Source of the DNA: Escherichia coli
GTDB taxonomy: Bacteria; Pseudomonadota; Gammaproteobacteria; Enterobacterales; Enterobacteriaceae
Assembly (NCBI RefSeq): GCF_030013595.1
Contig: NZ_CP122768.1
Direction: 5' to 3' (one strand)
DNA: 64,000 nt
Program-made: the position numbers and the translations under genes
The notes under the pieces: generated by a model
The model's input: only the letters and a program-made list of their open reading frames with translations
What the model was told of the DNA's origin: nothing
Database searches by the model: none
In this document: piece by piece, positions 7,785-19,652 of the stretch
Numbering within the stretch: the stretch's first letter is position 1
Layout of the letters: each line of letters opens with the position of its first letter

Positions 7785-8810
7785 TTATATTTTTTCGATC
7801 TCGACCAGATTAGTGTGCTGCGGGTTTCCCTTCGCCAGTGGTGAAGGGCGCAGAGTGGTTAGCGTATTCACACAGCCGCCATGGTCGATTTTATCGCCAG
7901 ACATATTGGCCTCGTGCCAGGCTCCCTGGCCCATAGCGCTAACCCCAGGGAGAATGCGTGGTGTTACTTTGGCTGGTAGCCGAACTTCGCCACGATGGTT
8001 AAACACCCGCACCATATCGCCGTTGGCAATCCCACGTTTCTGTGCATCTATAGGGTTGATCCACACCTCCTGACGGCAGGCTTCCTTCAGGACATCAATA
8101 TTGCCGTAGGTCGAGTGGGTACGGGATTTGTAATGGAAACCAAACAGTTGCAGTGGGAAGGTTCTACGTTCAGGGGAGTCCCAGCCTTCAAAGGTTGAGG
8201 CATAAACTGGCAGTGGGCTTATCACTTCATCTTTTTCCAGTTCCCAGGTACGGGCAATTTCCGCCAGCTTGCTGGAATAAATTTCAATCTTACCGGAAGG
8301 CGTTTTAAGTGGATTTGCCTCGGGGTCGTCACGAAATGCTTTGTAGGCGACAAAATGACCATTGGGATCTTTACGCTTATAGATACCCATTTTTTTCAGT
8401 TCGTCGTAAGACGGTAACGCCGGATCTTTGGCAAGCATTTTGGCGTACAGATGTTGTAACCATTGTTCCTGCGTGCGACCTTCTGTGAACTTTTGATAGA
8501 CGTCAGGTCCAAGACGTTTCGCGACTTCACTCAGGATCCAGTAAATCGGTTTGCGTTCGAATTTTTCGCTGGTGACTGGCTGAAGGAAAATGAGATATCC
8601 CATGTTACCTGCGTAGTCGTTAGGAATAATATCTTCCTGCTCAACGGTCATCAGGTCTGGCAGCAGAATGTCGGCATATTTTGCCGATGAGGTCATAAAG
8701 TTTTCGATGACCACAATCATTTCGCATTTCGATTCGTCCTGCAGAATTTCATGCGTTTTGTTGATGTCAGAATGCTGATTAACCAGGGTATTTCCCGCGT
8801 AGTTCCAGAT
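7785..8810 (-). pseudogene. ynfE: ynfE C-terminal fragment (gene split by insertion at 8811)
   Basis: In-frame ynfE sequence from codons I-W-N-Y (8799-8810) to stop at 7785; ORF track upstream extension 8811-8951 is element DNA read in the wrong context. Confidence 0.85.
8801..8810. repeat. left copy of 10-bp direct repeat AGTTCCAGAT flanking the ynfE insert (att core or target duplication)
   Basis: Identical 10-mer at 18242-18251; both copies encode ynfE residues IWN. Confidence 0.8.
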
Positions 8811-8876
8811 GGACTCCACTGTCAGACGGATGGACGGACTTGAAGTAGTTGACTCAACGCTACTTAAGGTCCTGAT

Positions 8877-10485
8877 ATGACTGACATTAACTATGATAAT
8901 ACTGTATATCCATCCAGCTCTTTCTCTGGGTCTCCCTATCTGTATGGGCAAGTCTACACCTCAAGTCCTGACACAAGGCTGACACAAATCAATCTACTCA
9001 GCGTAGCTAAGCCTCAGTTAGTCCGTAGAGCCAATGGTCGATATACTATCCGCTTCAGACTCAAGGGACAGACCACACCGTTTCTTTCAGTATCGACCCG
9101 AAGCACAGACAGGAGAGTAGCCACAATGCGTCAGAGAGAGCTTGCAGCCACAGCTAAGGCCTTCATGTTGGATAGGCCTGAAGTCTCACTACAGGAGCTT
9201 ACAGAGCATCTCCGGTCTATGGCTGAGCAGTTCCTGACAGACGCTAGTGACGATTACTGGAATGGACTTGAGGTCGCTACTTTGGTGGACGAGAAGTCCA
9301 ACCTGAAGGAGCTAGCCGCTACGCAAGCCTTGAGTCTGGACCAGCAGAAGGGCATAAGGTTAGCGCTTGAAGTCCTGACCGCAGCACAGCAGAGGGTAGA
9401 TACTGGTGATACGTCCAGTCTAATCAAGCTGATTGGTGGTGGCGTAAGCCAGCTTACTGATGGAGATGACAATAACCTTACTAATAACTCAACTATATGC
9501 GACTCTACGTTGATTCTGAGGAACGAGCAGGGGGTCAGCCCGCAAGTATTCACGAGAGAGCGCCAACCATCTGTAGTTTTTTCAAGCCTAGTGTCCTCAC
9601 TGCTGGCTGAGAAGGTCCAGACCCTGAAGTCCTCCAGCTACAAGGACCTGTCGTCCTCACTGAATACCGTCTCTCGGTTTCTGCCTGAAGATATGGACCT
9701 GATGTCCCGCTCTGAGTGGCTGGCAGTGAGGGACGCTATGCTGGCTGCTGAGGTGAGACCATCGACAATCAACAAGCTGCTGACCAAAGCGAAGATGTGT
9801 CTCGATTATGGCCTGATGAATGGGCAACTTGAGGGCCGCAACCCTATTGAACGGATGAAGCTGACCAAGGATACCGACTCCAAGCGCAGAGCGTTCACAG
9901 ACGAGGAGCTGGAGAGACTTCTGGTCCGTGTTGAGGCTGAGTATCAGTTCACACGACACACGGCTCACACGACCTCTGAGGCCCGTAGATGGGCGTCTCT
10001 GGTGTCTGTGGTCACTGGCGCGAGGTCTGCTGAGGTCTGCCACCTGACTAAACGTGACGTTGTAACCTTGGACAATGGACTGGTCTGTATCGACATCAAT
10101 GAAGATGGGGACGGGAAGTCTGTGAAGAACAAACATTCAGTCCGACTTGTGCCGTTAACCGATGGGGCCTGTGGTTTCAGCCTGAAGTCCTTCCTCAAAT
10201 GGGTAGACACTCAGCCTGCTGATGGTCCCCTCTTTGGTATGACTCCGAGTGCCTACTCTAGTTGGTTTAACTCTAGGGTCCTGACTGAGGCCCTAGGAGA
10301 CGCTGAGAACGTTTCTCCACAGTCTGAGACATTGGCTGGCGACCCGAATGAAAGAGCGTGGAGTCAATCTGGTGGACGCTCAAGGCATCTTAGGTCACAG
10401 CAGTCAGTCCATTACGTATGACCTGTACGGGAAAGGACACGCTGTTGGTAGGCTGGCTGAGGTGCTGAAGACAGCTTTACTTTAA
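8877..10485 (+). pseudogene. tyrosine recombinase/integrase, apparently frameshifted near 10297-10330
   Basis: N-terminal arm-binding-like segment (GRYTIRFRLKG...STRSTDRRVA); catalytic domain residues in frame A up to 10421; conserved HSLRHWLATRM...LGHSS...YDLYGKGH C-terminus is in the +1 frame ending at 10485. Confidence 0.65.
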
Positions 10486-10644
10486 GTAGGAAGACCCAAG
10501 GTGGAGACCATATACGGCTTGATGGTTGAGACCTTGGGTCACTGAAGTCTGACTGAAGTTAGGGAGGGTGATAATAATCATAATCCCTCCTGACTATAGG
10601 CCCACTGGTTCGCCTTCGGCTGTCCGACTCTAAGTCTGTCTGTG

Positions 10645-10776
10645 GTCTTATTTAAACTGGTTCCCTAACTCAGGTCCTCCAACTTGGTGTCTTATTTAAA
10701 CTGGTTCCCTAACTCAGGTCCTCCAACTTGGTGTCTTATTTAAACTGGTTCCCTAACTCAGGCCCCTCCAAATTTC
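10645..10776 (+). repeat. 44-bp tandem direct repeat, about 2.7 copies (candidate iterons/origin or regulator binding array)
   Basis: Unit GTCTTATTTAAACTGGTTCCCTAACTCAGGTCCTCCAACTTGGT at 10645-10688 and 10689-10732, third copy diverges after about 30 bp. Confidence 0.8.
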
Positions 10777-10792
10777 GTTGTCTGTCAGCGAC

Positions 10793-10818
10793 TTAAATAT
10801 CCCCTCACCTTAGAAGAG
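10793..10818 (+). promoter_or_regulatory. phage single-subunit-RNAP-type promoter P1 (class A, CCCCTCAC upstream)
   Basis: TTAAATATCCCCTCACCTTAGAAGAG; T7-supergroup -17..+6 architecture, predicted +1 G at 10813. Confidence 0.55.
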
Positions 10819-10833
10819 TTTAGGGTTCAGACC

Positions 10834-10857
10834 CTTAACTATCACCTTAGGAGAGAC
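10834..10857 (+). promoter_or_regulatory. phage single-subunit-RNAP-type promoter P2 (class B, AACTATCAC upstream)
   Basis: CTTAACTATCACCTTAGGAGAGA; predicted +1 G at 10850; 45 bp upstream of ORF 10902. Confidence 0.55.
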
Positions 10858-10901
10858 GGGCCGTCCTCCACCCAATCAAAACCTTAAGAGGAGGACCATA
10901 C

Positions 10902-11402
10902 ATGGCTATTAAAATTCAGTGCTACACCGAGTCCGACAATGCGGCTTTCTTCGGTGACGATTCCGACCTCCAGCACCAGCTACCAGCACCGACATATGAC
11001 GAACCTAAGGCCCGCACAGGTAAGCCTCCTGTGGTCATCGACAACCGGGCTGTCCGTGCGTGGCTGATTGAGACTGGGTGTCTCTCCTATACGCAGCTTG
11101 TTGAGGCGTACCCGTGGGCTGACGATGTGTTCACAGGACTCTCACGGGCTACCAGTGGCGCTGTCGGTGCTGGACTCCCGGTATCTAAGGCGTACCTGTT
11201 CTCTGCCTTATATGGCACCAACGACATCTTCTCCCGTAACACAGCCAAATCCTACGCTGACATCACTGGGCGTTCACCGTCTCCTCGCTACCTGCGCCAC
11301 GTCAATAGCGTGCTTCAGGCTACGGCTGTGAATCTGGCTAAGGTTCTGAAGGACCGAGGGGATTTCACATGGTGGGATTACAACGATCAGTGCCTGTCCT
11401 GA
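10902..11402 (+). CDS. hypothetical protein, first gene downstream of P1/P2
   Basis: 166-aa ORF with strong RBS AAGAGGAGG; no family recognised. Confidence 0.6.
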   Translation: MAIKIQCYTESDNAAFFGDDSDLQHQLPAPTYDEPKARTGKPPVVIDNRAVRAWLIETGCLSYTQLVEAYPWADDVFTGLSRATSGAVGAGLPVSKAYLFSALYGTNDIFSRNTAKSYADITGRSPSPRYLRHVNSVLQATAVNLAKVLKDRGDFTWWDYNDQCLS

Positions 11403-11424
11403 GAGCCGCGCCAGCTCTGGGCTG

Positions 11425-11448
11425 GAATACCCCCTCACTATAGGGACA
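11425..11448 (+). promoter_or_regulatory. phage single-subunit-RNAP-type promoter P3 (class A; T3-like CC at -11/-10)
   Basis: GAATACCCCCTCACTATAGGGACA; 13/13 match to T7 consensus from -9 to +4 (CTCACTATAGGGA). Confidence 0.7.
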
Positions 11449-11451
11449 CCC

Positions 11452-11477
11452 CCTAAACTATCACTATAGGGGGGACC
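11452..11477 (+). promoter_or_regulatory. phage single-subunit-RNAP-type promoter P4 (class B)
   Basis: CTAAACTATCACTATAGGGGGGACC; TCACTATAGGG core. Confidence 0.65.
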
Positions 11478-11712
11478 AACCTTGCCTCTGCTTCTGATGC
11501 GTCAGAACACGCGAGGTCCTCCCGACATTAAGTATTCTCCTAAGTAATCAAGGCCCGTGACCGCCTCTGACAGACCTCCTGTATCGACCTCCAGCTCGTT
11601 AGCGTTCTTTAGTCGTCTCGGTTAGTAGGTAACCGGCTCATTTAAACCGTCTGGTCTGTTTCCTCCGGCTCTACAAAAATAATGTCCATCATTTTTTAAT
11701 GGACACTATCGT

Positions 11713-12360
11713 ATGAAACACCGGACCTGGATCACTGAAGCTTTACGTCTTCACTTTGAAGAACATTTACCCCGGGTTGTGGCCGGGCGTCGCCTGGGTG
11801 TACCAAAATCAACAGTTTGTAGTATGTTCGTGCGCTTTCGGAGAGCTGGCCTTTCGTGGCCTTTGCCCGCAGGCATGTCGGAGCAGGAACTTGATGCCTG
11901 CCTTTACGGACAATTTTCCACGGTACCAGTCGTACGTCCTGAAAGCACCGTTATATCCGAAGCCCCCGTGGTAAAAAAACGTCCCCGGCGGCCCAACTTC
12001 CCTTATGAGTTTAAAATCGCCTTAGTGGAGCAGTCACTGCAGCCCGGAGCCTGTGTGGCGCAGATCGCCCGGGAAAACGGAATCAACGATAACCTGCTCT
12101 TCAACTGGCGCCATCAATACCGGAAAGGTGGCCTGCTGCCTTCCGGAAAAAATATGCCGGCACTGCTTCCCGTGACGTTAACGCCGGAGCCGGATAATAA
12201 AATCCCGGCCCCCGCACAGGAACCAGAGCAGATAAATACACCGTCCGACAGTCTGTGTTGTGAGCTGGTTCTGCCGGCCGGAACTCTCAGGCTTAAAGGT
12301 AAACTGACGCCGGCGTTATTACAGACACTTATCCGCGAAATAAAAGGGAGCAGCCACTGA
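11713..12360 (+). CDS. IS66 accessory protein (orf1/TnpA-like)
   Basis: 215 aa, first ORF of IS66 triad; identical to copy-2 ORF. Confidence 0.8.
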   Translation: MKHRTWITEALRLHFEEHLPRVVAGRRLGVPKSTVCSMFVRFRRAGLSWPLPAGMSEQELDACLYGQFSTVPVVRPESTVISEAPVVKKRPRRPNFPYEFKIALVEQSLQPGACVAQIARENGINDNLLFNWRHQYRKGGLLPSGKNMPALLPVTLTPEPDNKIPAPAQEPEQINTPSDSLCCELVLPAGTLRLKGKLTPALLQTLIREIKGSSH

Positions 12361-12707
12361 TGATATCTCTCCCTGCAGGTTCGCGTATCTGGCTGGTTGC
12401 AGGTATCACCGATATGCGAAATGGCTTTAACGGCCTGGCATCAAAAGTTCAGAACGTCCTGAAGGATGACCCGTTCTCCGGACACCTGTTCATCTTCCGC
12501 GGACGCCGGGGTGACCAGATAAAAGTGTTGTGGGCTGACAGTGACGGACTGTGCCTCTTCACCAAACGCCTGGAGCGGGGCCGCTTCGTCTGGCCAGTCA
12601 CCCGTGACGGCAAGGTGCACCTTACTCCGGCTCAGTTATCCATGCTTCTTGAAGGTATCAACTGGAAGCACCCGAAACGAACGGAACGCGCTGGAATCCG
12701 CATATAA
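12360..12707 (+). CDS. IS66 Orf2 (TnpB-like)
   Basis: 115 aa, overlapping start with preceding stop (ATGA); typical IS66 orf2. Confidence 0.8.
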   Translation: MISLPAGSRIWLVAGITDMRNGFNGLASKVQNVLKDDPFSGHLFIFRGRRGDQIKVLWADSDGLCLFTKRLERGRFVWPVTRDGKVHLTPAQLSMLLEGINWKHPKRTERAGIRI

Positions 12708-12726
12708 CCCGTTGTAAAGTGAGGAT

Positions 12727-14298
12727 ATGGACACCTCACTTGCTCATGAGAACGCCCGCCTGCGGGCACTGTTGCAGACGCAACAGGACACCATCCGCCA
12801 GATGGCTGAATACAACCGCCTGCTCTCACAGCGGGTGGCGGCTTATGCTTCCGAAATCAACCGGCTGAAGGCGCTGGTTGCGAAACTGCAACGTATGCAG
12901 TTCGGTAAAAGCTCAGAAAAACTTCGTGCAAAAACCGAACGGCAGATACAGGAAGCACAGGAGCGAATCAGCGCACTTCAGGAAGAAATGGCGGAAACGC
13001 TGGGTGAGCAATATGACCCGGTACTGCCATCCGCCCTGCGCCAGTCTTCAGCCCGTAAACCGTTACCGGCCTCACTTCCCCGTGAAACCCGGGTTATCCG
13101 GCCGGAAGAGGAATGCTGTCCTGCCTGTGGTGGTGAACTCAGTTCTCTGGGATGTGATGTGTCAGAGCAACTGGAGCTTATCAGCAGCGCCTTTAAGGTT
13201 ATCGAAACACAACGTCCGAAACAGGCCTGTTGCCGGTGCGACCATATCGTACAGGCACCAGTACCTTCAAAACCCATTGCACGCAGTTATGCCGGAGCGG
13301 GGCTTCTGGCCCATGTTGTCACCGGGAAATATGCAGACCATCTGCCGTTATACCGCCAGTCAGAAATATACCGTCGTCAGGGAGTGGAGCTGAGCCGTGC
13401 CACACTGGGGCGCTGGACAGGTGCTGTTGCTGAACTGCTGGAGCCGCTGTATGACGTCCTGCGCCAGTATGTGCTGATGCCCGGTAAAGTCCATGCTGAT
13501 GATATCCCCGTCCCGGTCCAGGAGCCGGGCAGCGGTAAAACCCGGACAGCCCGGCTGTGGGTCTACGTCCGTGATGACCGTAACGCCGGTTCACAGATGC
13601 CCCCGGCGGTCTGGTTCGCGTACAGTCCGGACCGGAAAGGTATCCATCCACAAAATCACCTGGCCGGTTACAGCGGTGTGCTTCAGGCCGATGCTTACGG
13701 TGGTTACCGGGCGTTATACGAATCCGGCAGAATAACGGAAGCCGCGTGTATGGCTCATGCCCGGAGAAAAATCCACGATGTGCATGCAAGAGCGCCCACC
13801 TACATCACCACGGAAGCCCTGCAGCGTATCGGTGAACTGTATGCCATCGAGGCAGAGGTCCGGGGCTGTTCAGCAGAACAGCGTCTGGCGGCAAGAAAAG
13901 CCAGAGCCGCGCCACTGATGCAGTCACTGTATGACTGGATACAGCAACAGATGAAAACACTGTCGCGTCACTCAGATACGGCAAAAGCGTTCGCATACCT
14001 GCTGAAACAGTGGGATGCACTGAACGTGTACTGCAGTAATGGCTGGGTGGAAATCGACAACAACATCGCAGAGAACGCCTTACGGGGAGTGGCCGTAGGC
14101 CGGAAAAACTGGATGTTCGCGGGTTCCGACAGCGGTGGTGAACATGCGGCGGTGTTGTACTCGCTGATCGGCACATGCCGTCTGAACAATGTGGAGCCAG
14201 AAAAGTGGCTGCGTTACGTCATTGAACATATCCAGGACTGGCCGGCAAACCGGGTACGCGATCTGTTGCCCTGGAAAGTTGATCTGAGCTCTCAGTAA
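12727..14298 (+). CDS. IS66-family DDE transposase (Orf3/TnpC)
   Basis: 523 aa with leucine-zipper-like N-terminus, CxxC...CxxC zinc motif and DDE region. Confidence 0.85.
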
Positions 14299-14582
14299 AT
14301 ATCAATACGGTTCTGACGAGTCGCTTACGTTAGTAGCTCGTCTACTCACTACATTGGCTTAAGTCTATCACCGCTCACCATCTGGAGTCCTTACAGCTCG
14401 TCCTGACATGCGGTCTCACCTTATATGCACATGGAGAACATGGCCACTCCAGACCAACACTAATCAACATTAACCCTATTCACTTTCGTTAAGCATTTTT
14501 TGGTGGGTCCGTTTGGATGCATTGAATAGGTGCGGACTCCACGTGGAGACAGAAAGTGCTTTACTAAAGGAGCATCCTTTAT

Positions 14583-14972
14583 ATGACTATTAAATCCATC
14601 GTTATCAACGGTAAGACCATCCTGTCTACACCTAACGCCATCAATGAGGGTGTCTGGTTCGACATGCTTGAGGTCCATCAAGCTGCTGGCTTGCCTGCTA
14701 ACAAGACGTTCTCACAGTGGCGCAGCCGACAGTCTCGTGCATTAGAAGAGGCTGGAGAGGTGTCGTTTGACAGTGTACAGAAGACCCTGTGTGGCAGCTT
14801 TGTGGCAGTGCTGGCCTACCTTATGTGGGCGGACCTTACTCTCTGGCTGGCGGTGGTTCGTTACGTTGCGTCTGAGACTATCGGCGTCCTGCCTGACCGC
14901 TTCAAGTCTATCGACGGTGATAACCCCGAGTTAGAAATGTCAGAGGATAACAGCGAGTGGGAGGACTTCTAA
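14583..14972 (+). CDS. KilA-N domain protein (short)
   Basis: 129 aa; N-terminal motif WFDMLEVHQAAGLPANK...WLAVVRYV resembling KilA-N; strong RBS AAGGAG. Confidence 0.55.
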   Translation: MTIKSIVINGKTILSTPNAINEGVWFDMLEVHQAAGLPANKTFSQWRSRQSRALEEAGEVSFDSVQKTLCGSFVAVLAYLMWADLTLWLAVVRYVASETIGVLPDRFKSIDGDNPELEMSEDNSEWEDF

Positions 14973-14973
14973 G

Positions 14974-15714
14974 ATGACCATGAGCCAGCTTGAAGCATTA
15001 CCTATCGTCATCGAGGGTCATTCATTCATCTGCAACGACCAGCGCATGTGGAACCTGAACGAGATTCACCGAGTGTTAGGTCTTCCAGCAAGCAAGATGC
15101 CGTCTGAGTGGAATAACAAGATTCGCACACAACTTGACCGCTCCGGAAATTTCCGGACCGTGAATGGTGACGGCGGTGGTACATGGGCGACCGAGGCTGG
15201 GACCGTGGCTTATGCTATGTGGGTCTCTACAGATTTCTACCTGATGGTCATCAATGCTTTCATCTTTATGCGTAACGACGCAATCGTCCGAGAGCGTGTA
15301 GCGGTCAAACAGGCTGACGAGGCTAACGCTAACCTCTCCATCGCAGCACCTAAGGCAGACATCTTTGACGGTCGTCTGACCAATGGTGGCTCTGTTCCGT
15401 GGAACTGGGCGTGTAAATCTTTGGGTCTTGCCCCGATGAAACTGAAAGAGGGCTTGAAGCGCTCCGGTAAGTTCGTCCAGAAGTGGAACCCTGACAGTTA
15501 CGCCGACGAGCTTCGACCTCAGGAGAAGGCGTTCAGTATTGGACTATTCGTCACTAAGTCAGTCATGGGTAAAGACACATGGCAGGTGACAGCTAAAGGC
15601 TACGCATGGATGCAGGGGAACGCCCAGAAGTGGAGAGAGCTAATAGCTGATGGTGACCGCTTAAAGGCTGCTGAGCGTCGAGCACAGAAGCGTCTTAACC
15701 GTGGAGGTAAGTAG
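14974..15714 (+). CDS. KilA-N domain protein with C-terminal extension
   Basis: 246 aa; MWNLNEIHRVLGLP...NGDGGGTWATEAGTVAYAMWVSTDFYLMVI typical of KilA-N; start 2 nt after preceding stop. Confidence 0.6.
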   Translation: MTMSQLEALPIVIEGHSFICNDQRMWNLNEIHRVLGLPASKMPSEWNNKIRTQLDRSGNFRTVNGDGGGTWATEAGTVAYAMWVSTDFYLMVINAFIFMRNDAIVRERVAVKQADEANANLSIAAPKADIFDGRLTNGGSVPWNWACKSLGLAPMKLKEGLKRSGKFVQKWNPDSYADELRPQEKAFSIGLFVTKSVMGKDTWQVTAKGYAWMQGNAQKWRELIADGDRLKAAERRAQKRLNRGGK

Positions 15715-15716
15715 TC

Positions 15717-15941
15717 ATGGCTATGATTGACCCTCGTACACCTATCGGCAAAGCGACCCTTCGTTACCGTGGTCTGCCTACACGTCATCTGCTGTCCCTG
15801 CTGAGACTTGGAGTCGAAGACCCCGAACGCCCGTACTACAGTCGAGACGAGCTAATAGCTATGTTGGTGGACCGTGATTTAGACAATCAGTTACGCCGAG
15901 CCTTTGCGAAGTCTAGCGCAGCTAGGGAACTGGAGTCCTGA
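15717..15941 (+). CDS. hypothetical protein
   Basis: 74-aa ORF, start 3 nt after preceding stop, same strand. Confidence 0.45.
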   Translation: MAMIDPRTPIGKATLRYRGLPTRHLLSLLRLGVEDPERPYYSRDELIAMLVDRDLDNQLRRAFAKSSAARELES

Positions 15942-16146
15942 ACCTTATGGGGCAGAAAAACCGCCGCATAAACCTATCGTCTGCTGACCGAAGTTTCGAC
16001 GCATTGAGCCAGACGGAAAAGTTTTCCTGCTGGTAAACCACCTTAATTTAAACACCTTTTGAGAATGACCGATGCGGGGAGACCCGTAGGCATAACTGTG
16101 TCTGCGATACCGATAGTTCTCACCTTCTCAATAGGAGTACTACCTT

Positions 16147-16638
16147 ATGTTATTCAACAACAACGACTGGAAACTATCAGTCACCGACATCAATCCCTAT
16201 GAAAATACTGTGAGTCTGGACGGTCAGTCCTATCCGCTGTCTCTGGCGATTAAGACCCTGATTCCGGGCTACCTGTCAGGCTTACCGTCCACCAGCCGCG
16301 AGGCGATGGAGTTACTGGAAGCTCTGGCTGAAGCTGGCGTGTCCATTGGCAACTTCTTCAGTAATGACCTGATGACCGCCTATGGTCGCCGCCAGCAGAA
16401 CAAGCGAGCCGAAGCTGAGCGTATTGCTAAAGAGCAGCGCATTCAGGCTGAGCGTATGCGTGAAGAGAACATGACTGATGCAGAGTGGCAGAAAGAGCTA
16501 CAGCGCCGTGAACAGGTCAAAGCTGAACGCCGGACCTATGGTGAGCACCTCCGCAGTGCTACCCATTCCGCTGGGCGCTCCCGTGCTTCTATGGTCGCTG
16601 ACATTGAGTCCACGGACAACTGGATGGACAGCCTCTAA
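16147..16638 (+). CDS. hypothetical charged coiled-coil protein (scaffold-like?)
   Basis: 163 aa; RBS AGGAG; C-terminal K/R/E-rich helical segment. Confidence 0.5.
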   Translation: MLFNNNDWKLSVTDINPYENTVSLDGQSYPLSLAIKTLIPGYLSGLPSTSREAMELLEALAEAGVSIGNFFSNDLMTAYGRRQQNKRAEAERIAKEQRIQAERMREENMTDAEWQKELQRREQVKAERRTYGEHLRSATHSAGRSRASMVADIESTDNWMDSL

Positions 16639-16704
16639 GACACAGACACACAAGTGGTCCTGACCTGATGTCGGGACCCACAGTATCCAAACTAATTTAG
16701 GAGA

Positions 16705-17700
16705 TTGATTATTATGACGATTAAAGACGCTTTCCAGTTCGGCATTGAGCCAGTACGTATCAGCGACACCGACAACATTCAGATTAACGAAGGTTTGCCA
16801 ACTAACGCAGACCCGCAGGTCTATGCCCTCCAGTTAGCTAAGACGGTTAAGGCTATGCTGAACGGTGTACTTAAAGACGCTCAAGAGAACATCCCGTTCC
16901 CTGTAGAAGTCCTGCCGACCCGCAATAGCCTGCCTACTCCAATCATTGCTCACACTCTGGCTGATCGCTCTGTGGTCGTTCCTGTCCGTGGTGGTAAGCG
17001 ACCTGAAGTCGTGACCGTTCCGTCTGGACAAGAAATCGTGGTCGAACCAATCGAGCAGGCTATTCTCATCTCTGAGCAGACCAAGCTCTGGGACGCCAAG
17101 TCATCCACCGGATTCACTCAGGGCACACTTCAGCAGGACGCTATGAACATCTGTGAGAATGTGGTCCGTACCATCAACGCTCGCATGGTCGACGTTCTGG
17201 AGTCCTCCAAACTGTTGAAGACCGTAGAGCTGCCAGTCCTGACTGGAAGCCTGACCACTAAGGCAGACGCTATCATGGACGCTCTGTTTGAGAACACCGA
17301 GTCCTCTTTCGGCTCTGAAGTGTCTGATTACGGCATCATCGCCCATGAGTCCCAACTGAAAGCGCTGTCCCGTCTGGCAGCTAAACAGGGCTTCTCTGGT
17401 GGAGACGCTATCGTGGATATGCTGGGTACCGACATCGCCTATTACAACGGTGAAGACAAGGGTGTATTCATGCTGGCTAAACGCTTCACGGCCCTGAGCT
17501 TCGGCTGCTTCCGTCACGACGGTGAGAATATTACGGTCGTCCTTTCACGTGATGGCGACTCTCAGTCCCACGACTTGGAAATCCTCGGTAAAGTGTTCGT
17601 TGTCGCTGAAGCTGCTACGACCATCAAGATGGGCACTGGCTCAGCTACTGCCGTCCTGCCTGTAGTCAAACGCCTGAAGTTCACCAAGACCGAAGCGTAA
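16705..17700 (+). CDS. hypothetical 331-aa protein (possible virion/structural protein; unverified)
   Basis: Long ORF with RBS AGGAG directly downstream of coiled-coil ORF; no motif recognised. Confidence 0.5.
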   Translation: MIIMTIKDAFQFGIEPVRISDTDNIQINEGLPTNADPQVYALQLAKTVKAMLNGVLKDAQENIPFPVEVLPTRNSLPTPIIAHTLADRSVVVPVRGGKRPEVVTVPSGQEIVVEPIEQAILISEQTKLWDAKSSTGFTQGTLQQDAMNICENVVRTINARMVDVLESSKLLKTVELPVLTGSLTTKADAIMDALFENTESSFGSEVSDYGIIAHESQLKALSRLAAKQGFSGGDAIVDMLGTDIAYYNGEDKGVFMLAKRFTALSFGCFRHDGENITVVLSRDGDSQSHDLEILGKVFVVAEAATTIKMGTGSATAVLPVVKRLKFTKTEA

Positions 17701-17844
17701 GACCAATGGGTAAGAGGTAAGTCTGGACTGAATATCAGCAGGACTTCAGGTGGTGGCCTGTCACTGTGATTAACTAACTACGGTCTGGACCAATGGTCTG
17801 GGCCTTATTACTGGTATGGTAGTATACAGGCGAAGGAGGACCCA

Positions 17845-18000
17845 ATGTCTATGACTTCCGCAGACCTAAGGTCCCTCCTGACTCTGGTCTATAAACTCGT
17901 GTTCCTCTCTGTGGGTCTCTACATGGTTCTCTCTGGTCGACTCGGTGTGGATGTGTTCGACACTCTGTCTAAGGCTGTGGGTGGACTTCTAGGTCCTTAG
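17845..18000 (+). CDS. small hydrophobic protein (51 aa, one predicted TM helix)
   Basis: ATG 17845 with RBS GAAGGAGG; LVFLSVGLYMVLSG hydrophobic core; below ORF-track length cutoff. Confidence 0.4.
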   Translation: MSMTSADLRSLLTLVYKLVFLSVGLYMVLSGRLGVDVFDTLSKAVGGLLGP

Positions 18001-18241
18001 GTTTGGACTCACAGTGGGACCGATGATTTCTGACAGAAAAATGTGAATGACCATCTAATACATTAAGCCAGCAGACTTCCCCCCATAGTCCCGCCTCAAG
18101 TCCAGACCGAGGCCACCGGGGGTCCTGACCAGCCGTCTAGACATCCCGTCTAATGACACAAGTCTGGCACAAAGCCTGACACAAAGTCCTTGACTCAATG
18201 CAGGACCTCAGGCCTACTAAGGGTCCGCTTCAAGTCCTTGA

Positions 18242-18251
18242 AGTTCCAGAT
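18242..18251. repeat. right copy of 10-bp direct repeat AGTTCCAGAT
   Basis: Identical to 8801-8810; ynfE sequence resumes here. Confidence 0.8.
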
Positions 18252-19652
18252 GAACTTAATGGGCACATCCAGTTTATCTTTGCCGCGGACGCCGTCGCGG
18301 ATTGCCGTCATTTGCGGGCCATGATCGATAGCATCCGTCCAGCTGAAGCAGGAGATTGACGTTTTGACCGGATTATCCAGCACCGGTAGGCGTTCTATGG
18401 TAATGGTATAGGTCGATTCACGCGCGCCACTATTCCCGCCGCTGATGCCGACATTGCCCGTCAAAATAGGCAACATAGCAATAGCGCGTGCGGTCAGCTC
18501 ACCGTTTGCCTGGCGTTGCGGCCCCCAGCCCTGGCAGATATAAGCGGGTTTTGCTGTGCCAATTTCACGCGCCAGTTTGATGATACGGTCCACCGGGATA
18601 CCGGTAATTTGCGAAGCCCACTGCGGCGTTTTCGCTGTTTTATCGTCACCTTCACCAAGAATATAGGCTTTATAGTGACCATTTTTTGGTGCATCTGCGG
18701 GTAAGGTTTTTTCGTCATAGCCGACGCAGTATTTATCAAGAAAAGGTTGATCAACGAGATTTTCGTTAATCAATACCCAGGCAATACCCGCAACCAGCGC
18801 GGCATCGGTGCCCGGGCGAATAGGAAGCCATTCGTCTTCACGACCGGCAGCCGTATCGGTATATCGCGGATCGATAACAATCATTTTTGCGTTCGATTTC
18901 TCGCGCGCTTTTTCAAGAAGATAAGTGATGCCACCACCGCTCATGCGGGTTTCTGCCGGGTTGTTACCAAACATCACGACCAGCTTGCTGTTTTCAATAT
19001 CCGTGGTGCTGTTGCCATCATTACTGCCGTAGGTGTAGGGCATGGCACAGGAAATTTGCGCGGTGCTGTAGGAGCCATACTGGTTGAGTGAGCCGCCGTA
19101 GCAGTTCATCAGGCGTTTGACCGCCGAGGCGGATGGCGAAGAGCGGGTCATATTGCCGCCAACAATCCCCGAAGAGTACTGAATATATACAGCCTCATTG
19201 TCATATTGTTCGACGGTTTTTTTCAGGCTACTGGCGATAGTATCCAGGGCTTCATCCCAGCTAATCCGTTCGAATTTGCCTTCGCCGCGTTTGCCCACGC
19301 GTTTCATTGGGTAATTCAAGCGGTCGGGATGATTAATACGCCGACGGATGGAGCGACCGCGCAAACAGGCGCGTACTTGATGATTGCCATACTCATCGCT
19401 GCCGGTGTTGTCAGTTTCCACCCAGGTCACTTCATTATCTTTAACATGCAGACGAAGTGCACAGCGGCTACCACAGTTGACGGAACAGGCACCCCAGACC
19501 ACTTTCTCGCTGGCCTGTTGTACTGCTGCCGCTGCACTGCGCAGGGTGAACGGTAAAGAAAAACCGCCTGCAGCCAGCGCCAGAGAACCTATCGCGGTAG
19601 ATTTAACGAGTGTTCTGCGGCTGATGCCCACCATTTGTTCATTTTTGGACAT
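18243..19652 (-). pseudogene. ynfE: ynfE N-terminal fragment (Tat signal, catalytic subunit) ending at insertion junction
   Basis: 470 ynfE codons from MSKNEQMVGISRRTLVKS to IWN at 18243; ORF then runs 16 codons into element DNA to a stop at 18195. Confidence 0.85.

Follow-up and report, generated by a model that had tools for sequence, protein, structure and literature searches.

The 64,000-nucleotide stretch of Escherichia coli DNA analysed here (contig NZ_CP122768.1; hereafter the window) contains a copy of ynfE that is split in two by an insert of 9,431 bp (9.43 kb), and it is this insert, together with the family of related elements to which it belongs, that we describe. As the original prediction from the sequence had proposed, the two parts of the gene are bounded by a perfect 10-bp direct repeat, AGTTCCAGAT, which occurs exactly twice within the window:

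7785-8810, minus strand: C-terminal fragment of ynfE, from the translation of the open reading frame (ORF); the NCBI Prokaryotic Genome Annotation Pipeline (PGAP) annotates the same arrangement in strain PM4-5
8801-8810, no strand: attL core, direct repeat AGTTCCAGAT, single copy in intact ynfE
18242-18251, no strand: attR core, direct repeat AGTTCCAGAT, single copy in intact ynfE
18242-19652, minus strand: N-terminal fragment of ynfE, from the ORF translation and the PGAP annotation of the same arrangement in PM4-5
8877-10485, plus strand: tyrosine integrase pseudogene, ~536 aa in its intact form (PHROG integrase match, E 6e-24)
11629-14328, plus strand: insertion sequence (IS) of the IS66 family, 2,700 bp, with tnpA, tnpB and transposase, of ISCro1 type (from its ORFs and the ISCro1 label in related genomes)

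When the flanks were joined through one copy of the repeat, the resulting 419-bp query matched contiguous, annotated ynfE, at identities of up to 100%, in 5108 of 5426 complete E. coli genomes. Since the flanks and a single repeat reconstitute an intact gene, the insertion is both precise and site-specific. ynfE has previously been catalogued as a gene interrupted by an integrative element, or integration target (PMC7192596), and the effect of the insertion on the host is to inactivate it.

The length and flanks of the single insert originally described hold, with the qualification that 2,700 bp of it belong to the IS66 element, leaving a native element of ~6.7 kb. We defined the boundaries of the IS by alignment to an IS-free copy, L001 from E. 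coli PM4-5, and found them flanked by an 8-bp target duplication, GTTAGTAG, at 11621-11628 and 14329-14336; the IS thus separates the phage-type promoters Pc and Pd, described below, from the ORF4-ORF9 operon. The tyrosine integrase predicted at the left end is likewise present, in the form of a 514-aa ORF that is a frameshifted pseudogene: alignment with L001, a 98%-identical copy of the element, shows that 2 bp are missing at 10317/10318, which throws the HxxR and Tyr motifs (HSLRH...GHSS...Y) into another frame. The IS66 insertion and the integrase frameshift make the window copy a degenerate, damaged one, and with its integrase frameshifted and 2.7 kb of IS66 separating Pc/Pd from the operon it has probably lost its mobility. 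The search for intact copies elsewhere that the original prediction had suggested was productive, with 16 of 18 other ynfE copies encoding a full-length integrase of 524-549 aa. Decay of individual copies nonetheless seems common. L001, otherwise 98% identical, has a nonsense codon at ~3288 in the N-terminal arm-binding region of its integrase, which is why PGAP annotates a shorter protein of 453 aa there. The intergenic region that holds the IS66 element in the window is also the site of an IS66-family insertion, in the opposite orientation, in a relative from Citrobacter freundii (L007).

Relatives of the element are widespread. Its 3.9-kb right-hand region (14330-18241) has a match, at least partial, in 311 of the 5426 complete E. 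coli genomes (~6%); most of these share the stretch from ORF7 to ORF8, which can lie at other chromosomal sites. Genomes and metagenomes together yielded 18 complete copies in ynfE, 17 of them 6,482-6,715 bp long and one of 7.9 kb with an extra ORF. All 18 encode a 163-aa homologue of ORF7 and a 328-342-aa homologue of ORF8, and vary in their middle genes and in the slot occupied by ORF2. Relatives at other sites or in other genera measure ~6.2-8 kb and have the same layout; they include L006, next to tRNA-Gly in E. coli PEC148; L009 of Serratia marcescens, located where a ferritin-family (Dps-like) gene starts; L007, in ynfE of C. freundii; and L047, in a more distant host, whose capsid protein is only 29% identical and in which the order int ... 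DUF6971 - capsid is kept. Homologues of the ORF7-capsid module were found in Shigella, Salmonella, Enterobacter, Citrobacter, Serratia, Hafnia, Yersinia and other genera. The search of phage databases suggested at the outset returned no DNA match to the right half of the element in 50,697 phage records; since this search and a tblastn search with the capsid protein (below) both came back empty, the element is not a fragment of a sequenced phage. A search for related loci with close alignment produced only three provirus calls.

The genes of the insert are, as predicted, all on the same strand and tightly packed, with few sigma-70-like sites. Besides the integrase they encode a KilA-N/Ant protein, a DUF6971 protein, a capsid protein and small ORFs without a family match. 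The three products to which we could attach a family or fold are as follows:

14974-15714, plus strand: ORF5, 246 aa, KilA-N and ANT/KilAC domains, an Ant/Rha-like DNA-binding protein (Pfam KilA-N 6e-5, ANT 5e-4)
16147-16638, plus strand: ORF7, 163 aa, DUF6971 family, always immediately upstream of the capsid gene
16705-17700, plus strand: ORF8, predicted HK97-fold major capsid protein, likely start ATG 16714 (AlphaFold2 model and Foldseek)

No ORF of the insert matches RNA polymerase, DNA polymerase, primase-helicase, portal, terminase or tail families in PHROG, Pfam or NCBIfam, in agreement with the initial view that polymerase, primase-helicase and tail genes are missing. This extends to the family as a whole: neither the window copy nor any of more than 20 relatives carries polymerase, replication, portal, terminase or tail genes. 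Relatives with a single-subunit RNA polymerase (RNAP) of their own, which had been named among the findings that would refute a satellite, are absent from this set. The insert is a copy of a mobile element without genes for autonomous virion production and replication.

The element does carry sequences resembling the promoters of phage polymerases. Sites were scored with position-weight matrices built from two real Kayfunavirus promoter sets, EcoDS1-type and Ro103-type, on which genuine phage promoters reach 29-35 bits with their own matrix and the best site elsewhere in the 64-kb window, on either strand, reaches 13 bits:

10796-10818, plus strand: Pa, weak promoter-like site AATATCCCCTCACCTTAGAAGAG, 11.1 bits, Ro103-type matrix
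10833-10855, plus strand: Pb, putative EcoDS1/K1F-type phage RNAP promoter CCTTAACTATCACCTTAGGAGAG, 24.7 bits, EcoDS1-type matrix
11426-11448, plus strand: Pc, putative GW1/Ro103C3lw-type phage RNAP promoter AATACCCCCTCACTATAGGGACA, 25.8 bits, Ro103-type matrix
11452-11474, plus strand: Pd, putative EcoDS1/K1F/Ro45lw-type phage RNAP promoter CCTAAACTATCACTATAGGGGGG, 29.7 bits, EcoDS1-type matrix

Of the four T7-type promoters originally proposed, three, Pb, Pc and Pd, thus have scores close to or within the genuine range, and by their sequence they have the 23-bp form (-17 to +6) of Studiervirinae RNA polymerase promoters; Pa does not. The three sites represent two specificity classes set in tandem. 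Pd falls within the range of genuine promoters and is identical from -17 to +3 to annotated promoters of EcoDS1. It also matches, at 18 of 21 positions, the minimal promoter ACTTAACTATCACTATAGGGA that the polymerase of the Kayfunavirus Ro45lw uses in vitro (PMC12272871), and two of the three differences (-17 and -14) are variants found among EcoDS1's own promoters. That 21-mer, ACTTAACTATCACTATAGGGA, occurs verbatim in the sibling element L006. The core of Pb is identical to the CACCTTAG variant, a genuine EcoDS1 promoter at 11107. Motifs of the Pd/Pb class are present in 215 phage records, as a rule at 5-9 places in each; most of the records are of Escherichia and Salmonella phages and Kayfunavirus. 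In EcoDS1 and CR44b some of these sites bear a promoter annotation, and the eleven promoters annotated in EcoDS1 are CCTAAACTATCACTATAGGGAGA and close variants of it. A second Kayfunavirus subgroup, including Ro103C3lw and GW1, uses ATTAAACCCTCACTATAGGGA, and it is this class that Pc resembles.

Relatives in other hosts carry promoter-like sequences of other types. The C. freundii element L007 contains TTTAAGGAAGGTACACTATAGGGAGAGACAC, which matches the annotated phi10 promoter of Citrobacter phage CR8 at 31 of 31 positions (all eleven promoters of CR8 are AAGGAAGGTACACTATAGG). The promoter type of the Serratia element L009, TAAACCCCGACTATAGAGAG, found no match among sequenced phages. In L047 there are six copies of ...ACTCACTAATGGGAGA or ...ACACCCACTAATGGGAGA, similar to sites that occur in records of Yersinia, Escherichia and Salmonella phages. 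Tandem pairs of promoters of two specificity classes are found in most elements, including L006, L007, L013 and the remote L047. Since the members of a pair differ in specificity, more than one helper lineage could switch an element on, and we infer that tandem dual-class promoters are a way to answer more than one helper polymerase. A third class of upstream promoter, GGAATAAGCACTCACTATAGGGGA, is seen in L013 (~2528) and L018 (~3851), paired with the constant K1F-type promoter, and is closer to T7's own CGACTCACTATAGGG; this suggests that the first promoter of each pair is subject to turnover. Two further promoter-like sites in the insert, at 10582-10604 (AATCCCTCCTGACTATAGGCCCA, 8.5 bits) and 9177-9199 (CCTGAAGTCTCACTACAGGAGCT, 13 bits), are indistinguishable from background, the former having a GACTATAG core like that of the Serratia-type promoter.

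A second likeness to T7-like phages, not noted in the original prediction, lies at the two ends of the element, where short regions resemble the boundaries of the phage terminal repeat:

8928-8945, plus strand: concatemer-junction (CJ)-like pause motif GGGTCTCCCTATCTGTAT, resembling the phage CJ GAGTCTCTATCTGTAT annotated at EcoDS1 177-184
18003-18190, plus strand: putative mimic of the left boundary between the helper's right-unique region and terminal repeat, non-coding, from local alignment to helpers

At the right end the alignment sets the phage end-cut, ...CCACA^TCTCACAG, against GACCA^TCTAATAC at ~18053/18054. The local alignment scores are 63 against EcoDS1 and 80 against Ro103C3lw, compared with 24 +/- 3.5 for shuffled sequences. 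In a genome-wide control using ~780 windows per phage, on both strands of two phages, the helper junction was the single best window for each of three elements (63-64 for the window element, 71 for L006 and 48-52 for the Serratia element, against a 99th percentile of 32-36), and blocks of the right end are conserved across elements of E. coli, Citrobacter and Serratia. Similarly, the left end of the element is the top match genome-wide to the window of the phage direct terminal repeat (DTR), at 43-44 against 33-35, with the CJ-like similarity reaching into the flanks of the motif. GGGTCTCCCTATCTGTAT and its flanks are also like the T7 pause site, CCCTATCTGTT. The CJ motif lies within the integrase gene, and we considered whether it might be kept merely as codons for SPYLY of the integrase. 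This was rejected: a 15-mer of the motif forms integrase codons in the window, is translated in another register in L006 and, in the Serratia element L009, precedes an in-frame stop, which argues for its conservation as DNA. Both boundary mimics are in phage order and orientation, and they face each other across the junction (attP) that excision would create. By this geometry they become contiguous only after excision, when they would form one terminal-repeat-like unit of ~0.33 kb. Elsewhere in the integrase gene, at 9566-9583, ATCTGT occurs a second time with a T run behind it (CCATCTGTAGTTTTTTC), in the manner of a T7 class II terminator; the C. freundii element L007 has retained this sequence (~3249), and its position is that of the CJ-like motif in L006.

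The original prediction recognised no structural genes in the insert, and comparison of ORF8 with PHROG, Pfam and NCBIfam indeed gave no match. A structural model from 14 close homologues was unusable (pLDDT, the predicted local distance difference test, of 48), and remote homologues were added for a second, which was confident (pLDDT 85.5). Foldseek returned 195 PDB matches to this AlphaFold2 model at E<=1e-3, and all among the matches listed are HK97-fold capsids or encapsulins, identifying ORF8, on the strength of the model, as an HK97-fold major capsid protein of ~330 aa and reversing the earlier verdict. Because capsids and encapsulins share this fold, the match by itself does not separate the two, and one reading would have the insert as an integrative element with an encapsulin-like nanocompartment (ORF8 the shell, ORF7 its cargo) unrelated to phage parasitism. 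We consider this very improbable, as it accounts neither for host-matched phage promoters nor for the mimicry of terminal repeats, and ORF7 matches no known cargo family. The cluster to which ORF8 belongs has 2,495 members, which come from E. coli, Shigella, Salmonella and Enterobacter; one UniRef entry, A0A0F3WG04_ECOLX, is already named 'Phage major capsid protein', and the NCBI records say hypothetical.

Genome lengths of 1.2-4.4 kb have been predicted for T=1 heads and of 8.1-17.1 kb for T=3 heads (PMC7762592). The length of DNA that we would expect to be packaged, ~6.9 kb, lies between these ranges, under the 8.1-kb lower bound for T=3. The same study lists nine capsid-encoding 'tailed phage' contigs of 7.3-8.5 kb from gut metagenomes as tiny-capsid candidates, the smallest being OLNE01004159.1 at 7.4 kb (PMC7762592), and these might be members of the present family with flanks.

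ORF7, which precedes the capsid gene even in the remote relative L047, has 124 homologues across the Enterobacterales, some of which match PF22318. A scaffold role is possible, as a guess from its position only. A 16-nt identity between ORF7 and the DNA of gene 9 was dismissed as chance, since BLASTP against gp9 gave nothing.

Promoters, a capsid gene followed by a hairpin, a single direction of transcription and terminal-repeat-like ends are all T7-like, and the alternative put forward from the start was that the insert is a severely reduced T7-like prophage. The hairpin is weak evidence, with a folding energy of -15 kcal/mol and a z of -1.9 (-3.9 for its equivalent in L006):

17782-17804, plus strand: hairpin and T-rich tail after the capsid gene, placed like T7's T-phi terminator (terminator scan)

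That the insert is a deletion remnant of an integrative T7-like prophage is nevertheless very improbable in the light of its relatives. The same layout recurs in all 18 ynfE copies and in relatives at other sites and in other genera, none of which retains a remnant of a polymerase, replication, portal, terminase or tail gene. Nor do the proteins look like those of a helper: profile comparison found no sequence similarity between the ORF8 family and helper gp10A, neither ORF8 nor a remote homologue had a tblastn match in the 50,697 phage records, and BLASTP found no similarity between ORF7 and the scaffold gp9 of two helpers.

Taken together, these data lead us to read the insert as a degenerate copy of an Enterobacterales family of ~6.5-6.7-kb elements that parasitise virulent T7-like phages, a reading to which we give a probability of roughly three in four on the evidence of sequence. 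The helpers would be Kayfunavirus in E. coli and CR8-like phages in Citrobacter. This was also the proposal from which the work started, and it was supported in every in-silico test that could have refuted it (promoters, relatives, capsid and end mimicry).

The proposed cycle runs as follows. The element would lie silent in ynfE until infection, when the single-subunit RNA polymerase of the helper would fire the promoters whose sequences match its own. ORF2 and the ORF4-ORF9 operon would then be expressed, including the KilA-N/Ant-like, DUF6971 and HK97-fold capsid proteins. Excision by the integrase would join the right-end mimic to the left-end CJ motif across attP, creating the ~0.33-kb packaging region. 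Replication origins of T7 are primed from phage promoters, and by analogy with this biology the circle could be copied by the helper replisome from the element's phage promoters; the helper replisome is needed in such a cycle because the element has no replication genes. Finally, cutting by the helper terminase at the mimic signals would yield unit-length DNA, which helper terminase, portal and tail would package into small capsids of the element's own capsid protein, mounted on the helper's portal and tail.

Several observations weigh against this reading. The transcription, excision, replication and packaging of the element are all deduced from sequence, and the window copy is itself mutated. 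Its integrase gene lies upstream of all the phage promoters, which leaves the trigger for excision unexplained, and no excisionase was identified among the genes of the element. Pa, at only 11.1 bits, is a doubtful promoter, albeit one conserved in the sibling copies L020, L029 and L039. When the right end was compared by BLAST with all phages there were only four weak matches, the best with an E of 0.01 and at least three of them T7-like, so that the case for boundary homology is made by the targeted alignments and their shuffle and genome-wide controls. At ~0.33 kb (~0.7 kb in L006) the putative terminal repeat would be longer than the 178-190 bp of the helpers. Small capsids built from ORF8 would be expected only from gene position and genome size. 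An exact 23-mer spanning the excised-circle (attP) junction, which contains CCTTGAAGTTCCAGATGGACTCC, is absent from IMG/VR and from JGI metagenomes. Lastly, metagenome and Logan contigs of 6.6-6.8 kb were considered as free element genomes and rejected, as they proved to be integrated copies with ~40-90 bp of host flanks.

Some of the same observations would fit an island of phage-triggered defence or interference, in which the promoters would sense infection and T7-like assembly would be poisoned by the capsid-like protein, the KilA-N/Ant protein and decoy packaging signals, the element itself being neither packaged nor spread. Expression would depend on phage RNA polymerase here too, and a packaged or excised form was not found in public contigs. 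Furthermore, the variable slot after the integrase, with its 122-, 155- and 166-aa alleles and a DUF4145 gene in L006 and L051, looks like a hotspot for cargo or defence genes, and since known satellites also defend their hosts the two readings overlap. We nevertheless judge this explanation unlikely, if less so than the two others considered above. The element has no significant match to a PADLOC defence family, and pure defence leaves unexplained the conserved integrase with precise att sites at several loci, the narrow size of 6.5-6.7 kb and the presence of two terminal-repeat boundaries set to be joined by excision.

As a satellite of T7-like phages, the family would be new within a known kind of element. 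The original prediction knew of no described enterobacterial satellite of this helper class, and our full-text literature search, which many subscription papers lay beyond, found none either. In size and in the lifestyle of the helper, the known systems that come closest are the PICMIs (phage-inducible chromosomal minimalist islands) of the Vibrionaceae, which are very small (~6 kb) integrative satellites with minimal genes, a virulent helper and near-complete dependence on it for packaging (PMC10803314). Unlike the present elements, PICMIs have AlpA and a primase, integrate next to fis and lack a capsid gene; their packaging is headful, with ~8-copy concatemers entering full-size capsids, and their helper is a ~49-kb Vibrio phage not described as T7-like (PMC10803314). 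The present family has instead a capsid protein, putative helper-RNAP promoters and terminal-repeat-like signals, has neither AlpA nor primase, and uses other integration sites.

Other groups of satellites differ further. Of the genes that characterise phage-inducible chromosomal islands (PICIs), we found only int, with no AlpA/repressor, pri-rep, terS, ppi, cpm or rpp in PHROG, Pfam or NCBIfam. Capsid-forming PICIs (cf-PICIs) such as EcCI2 are ~14-15 kb long with a complete head and packaging module (portal, protease, terminases, connectors), and take only tails from temperate helpers; the element described here has only the capsid and DUF6971 proteins, which places it outside that group. Of the P4-like genes, alpha, sid, psu and delta had no match in PHROG or NCBIfam, in a search not aimed at cos. 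The Ccm protein of SaPIbov5 is a recognisable homologue of the helper capsid that co-assembles with it and redirects its size, whereas ORF8 is without similarity to helper gp10A. The PICI-like element (PLE) of Vibrio cholerae, with its helper ICP1, shares a virulent helper, silence until a specific phage infects and a need for helper replication and virion proteins. PLE is ~18 kb long and has its own replication initiator and an external scaffold, TcaP, acting on the helper coat, with triggering by a phage protein that works with the PLE integrase; use of helper-RNAP promoters is not described for it. The logic proposed here is also that of laboratory T7 transducing plasmids: Chung and Hinkle (1990) reportedly saw plasmids with a T7 origin and a concatemer junction replicated and packaged by infecting T7. 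Those constructs are artificial and travel in normal T7 heads, whereas the present element is natural, integrates and encodes its own capsid protein.

The proposal in its most complete form has four parts: a first family of satellites of T7-like phages, a tandem-promoter switch read by the helper RNAP, a packaging signal split by integration, and ~6.9-kb DNA in HK97-fold capsids of the element's own. That all four are correct at once we put forward tentatively, at somewhat less than even odds. T7-like phages serve as the textbook example of 'simple' virulent phages and find broad use in phage therapy and biotechnology. If the proposal is true, they would be a new class of helper for satellites, and with at least partial similarity to the right-hand region in ~6% of complete E. 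coli genomes this would change how their infections are interpreted with respect to yield, resistance and gene transfer. Induction would be very direct, with the helper polymerase reading the parasite's promoters and tandem promoters of dual specificity broadening the helper range in a simple way. No known tailed-phage head is as small as these capsids would be, and a 330-aa protein enclosing <7 kb of DNA could offer structural virology and engineering a minimal tailed capsid from nature. The elements also offer ready predictions of which promoters a phage polymerase recognises.

The remaining features of the insert are as follows:

8962-8990, plus strand: CTGACACAA repeats, putative integrase arm sites, left (sequence inspection; matching repeats at the right end)
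10645-10771, plus strand: 44-bp tandem repeat, 2.9 copies (Tandem Repeats Finder, TRF, score 238)
10902-11402, plus strand: ORF2, 166 aa, variable slot, no family match
14583-14972, plus strand: ORF4, 129 aa, no family match; N-terminus resembles that of ORF5 by eye only
15717-15941, plus strand: ORF6, 74 aa, no match
17845-18000, plus strand: ORF9, 51 aa, hydrophobic, from the ORF list, no family match
18154-18186, plus strand: TGACACAAAGCC repeats, putative integrase arm sites, right (TRF)

ORF2, ORF4, ORF6, ORF7 and ORF9 gave nothing significant against Pfam, PDB, NCBIfam and PADLOC, and no RNA family was matched in Rfam; ORF5 has matches in PHROG to transcriptional regulators and anti-repressors. 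The slot of ORF2 holds a 122-aa or a 155-aa allele in other copies. In the tRNA-Gly-linked relatives L006 (6425-7084) and L051 (1765-2418) a DUF4145 protein is encoded directly after the integrase, where the ynfE elements have their tandem repeats and ORF2, and this position may be a slot for cargo or defence genes. At the position of the 44-bp repeat L001 has a different triple repeat, and phage CR8 (L049) has tandem repeat arrays at 99-224 and 373-411, within and just past its terminal repeat. Single-element contigs of 6.6-6.8 kb from gut and food metagenomes (L020, L025, L029, L030, L034 and L039), with ~40-130 bp of ynfE at either end, are probably assembly bubbles from communities that mix occupied and empty ynfE alleles and do not speak for free element DNA. 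Finally, the repeat at the two ends of a further relative, L050, is TAGTTCAGATTGAACT, similar to the ynfE target TAGTTCCAGATGAACT; judging by this likeness, L050 is probably inserted in a paralogous or orthologous gene of the dimethyl sulfoxide (DMSO)-reductase family in another host.

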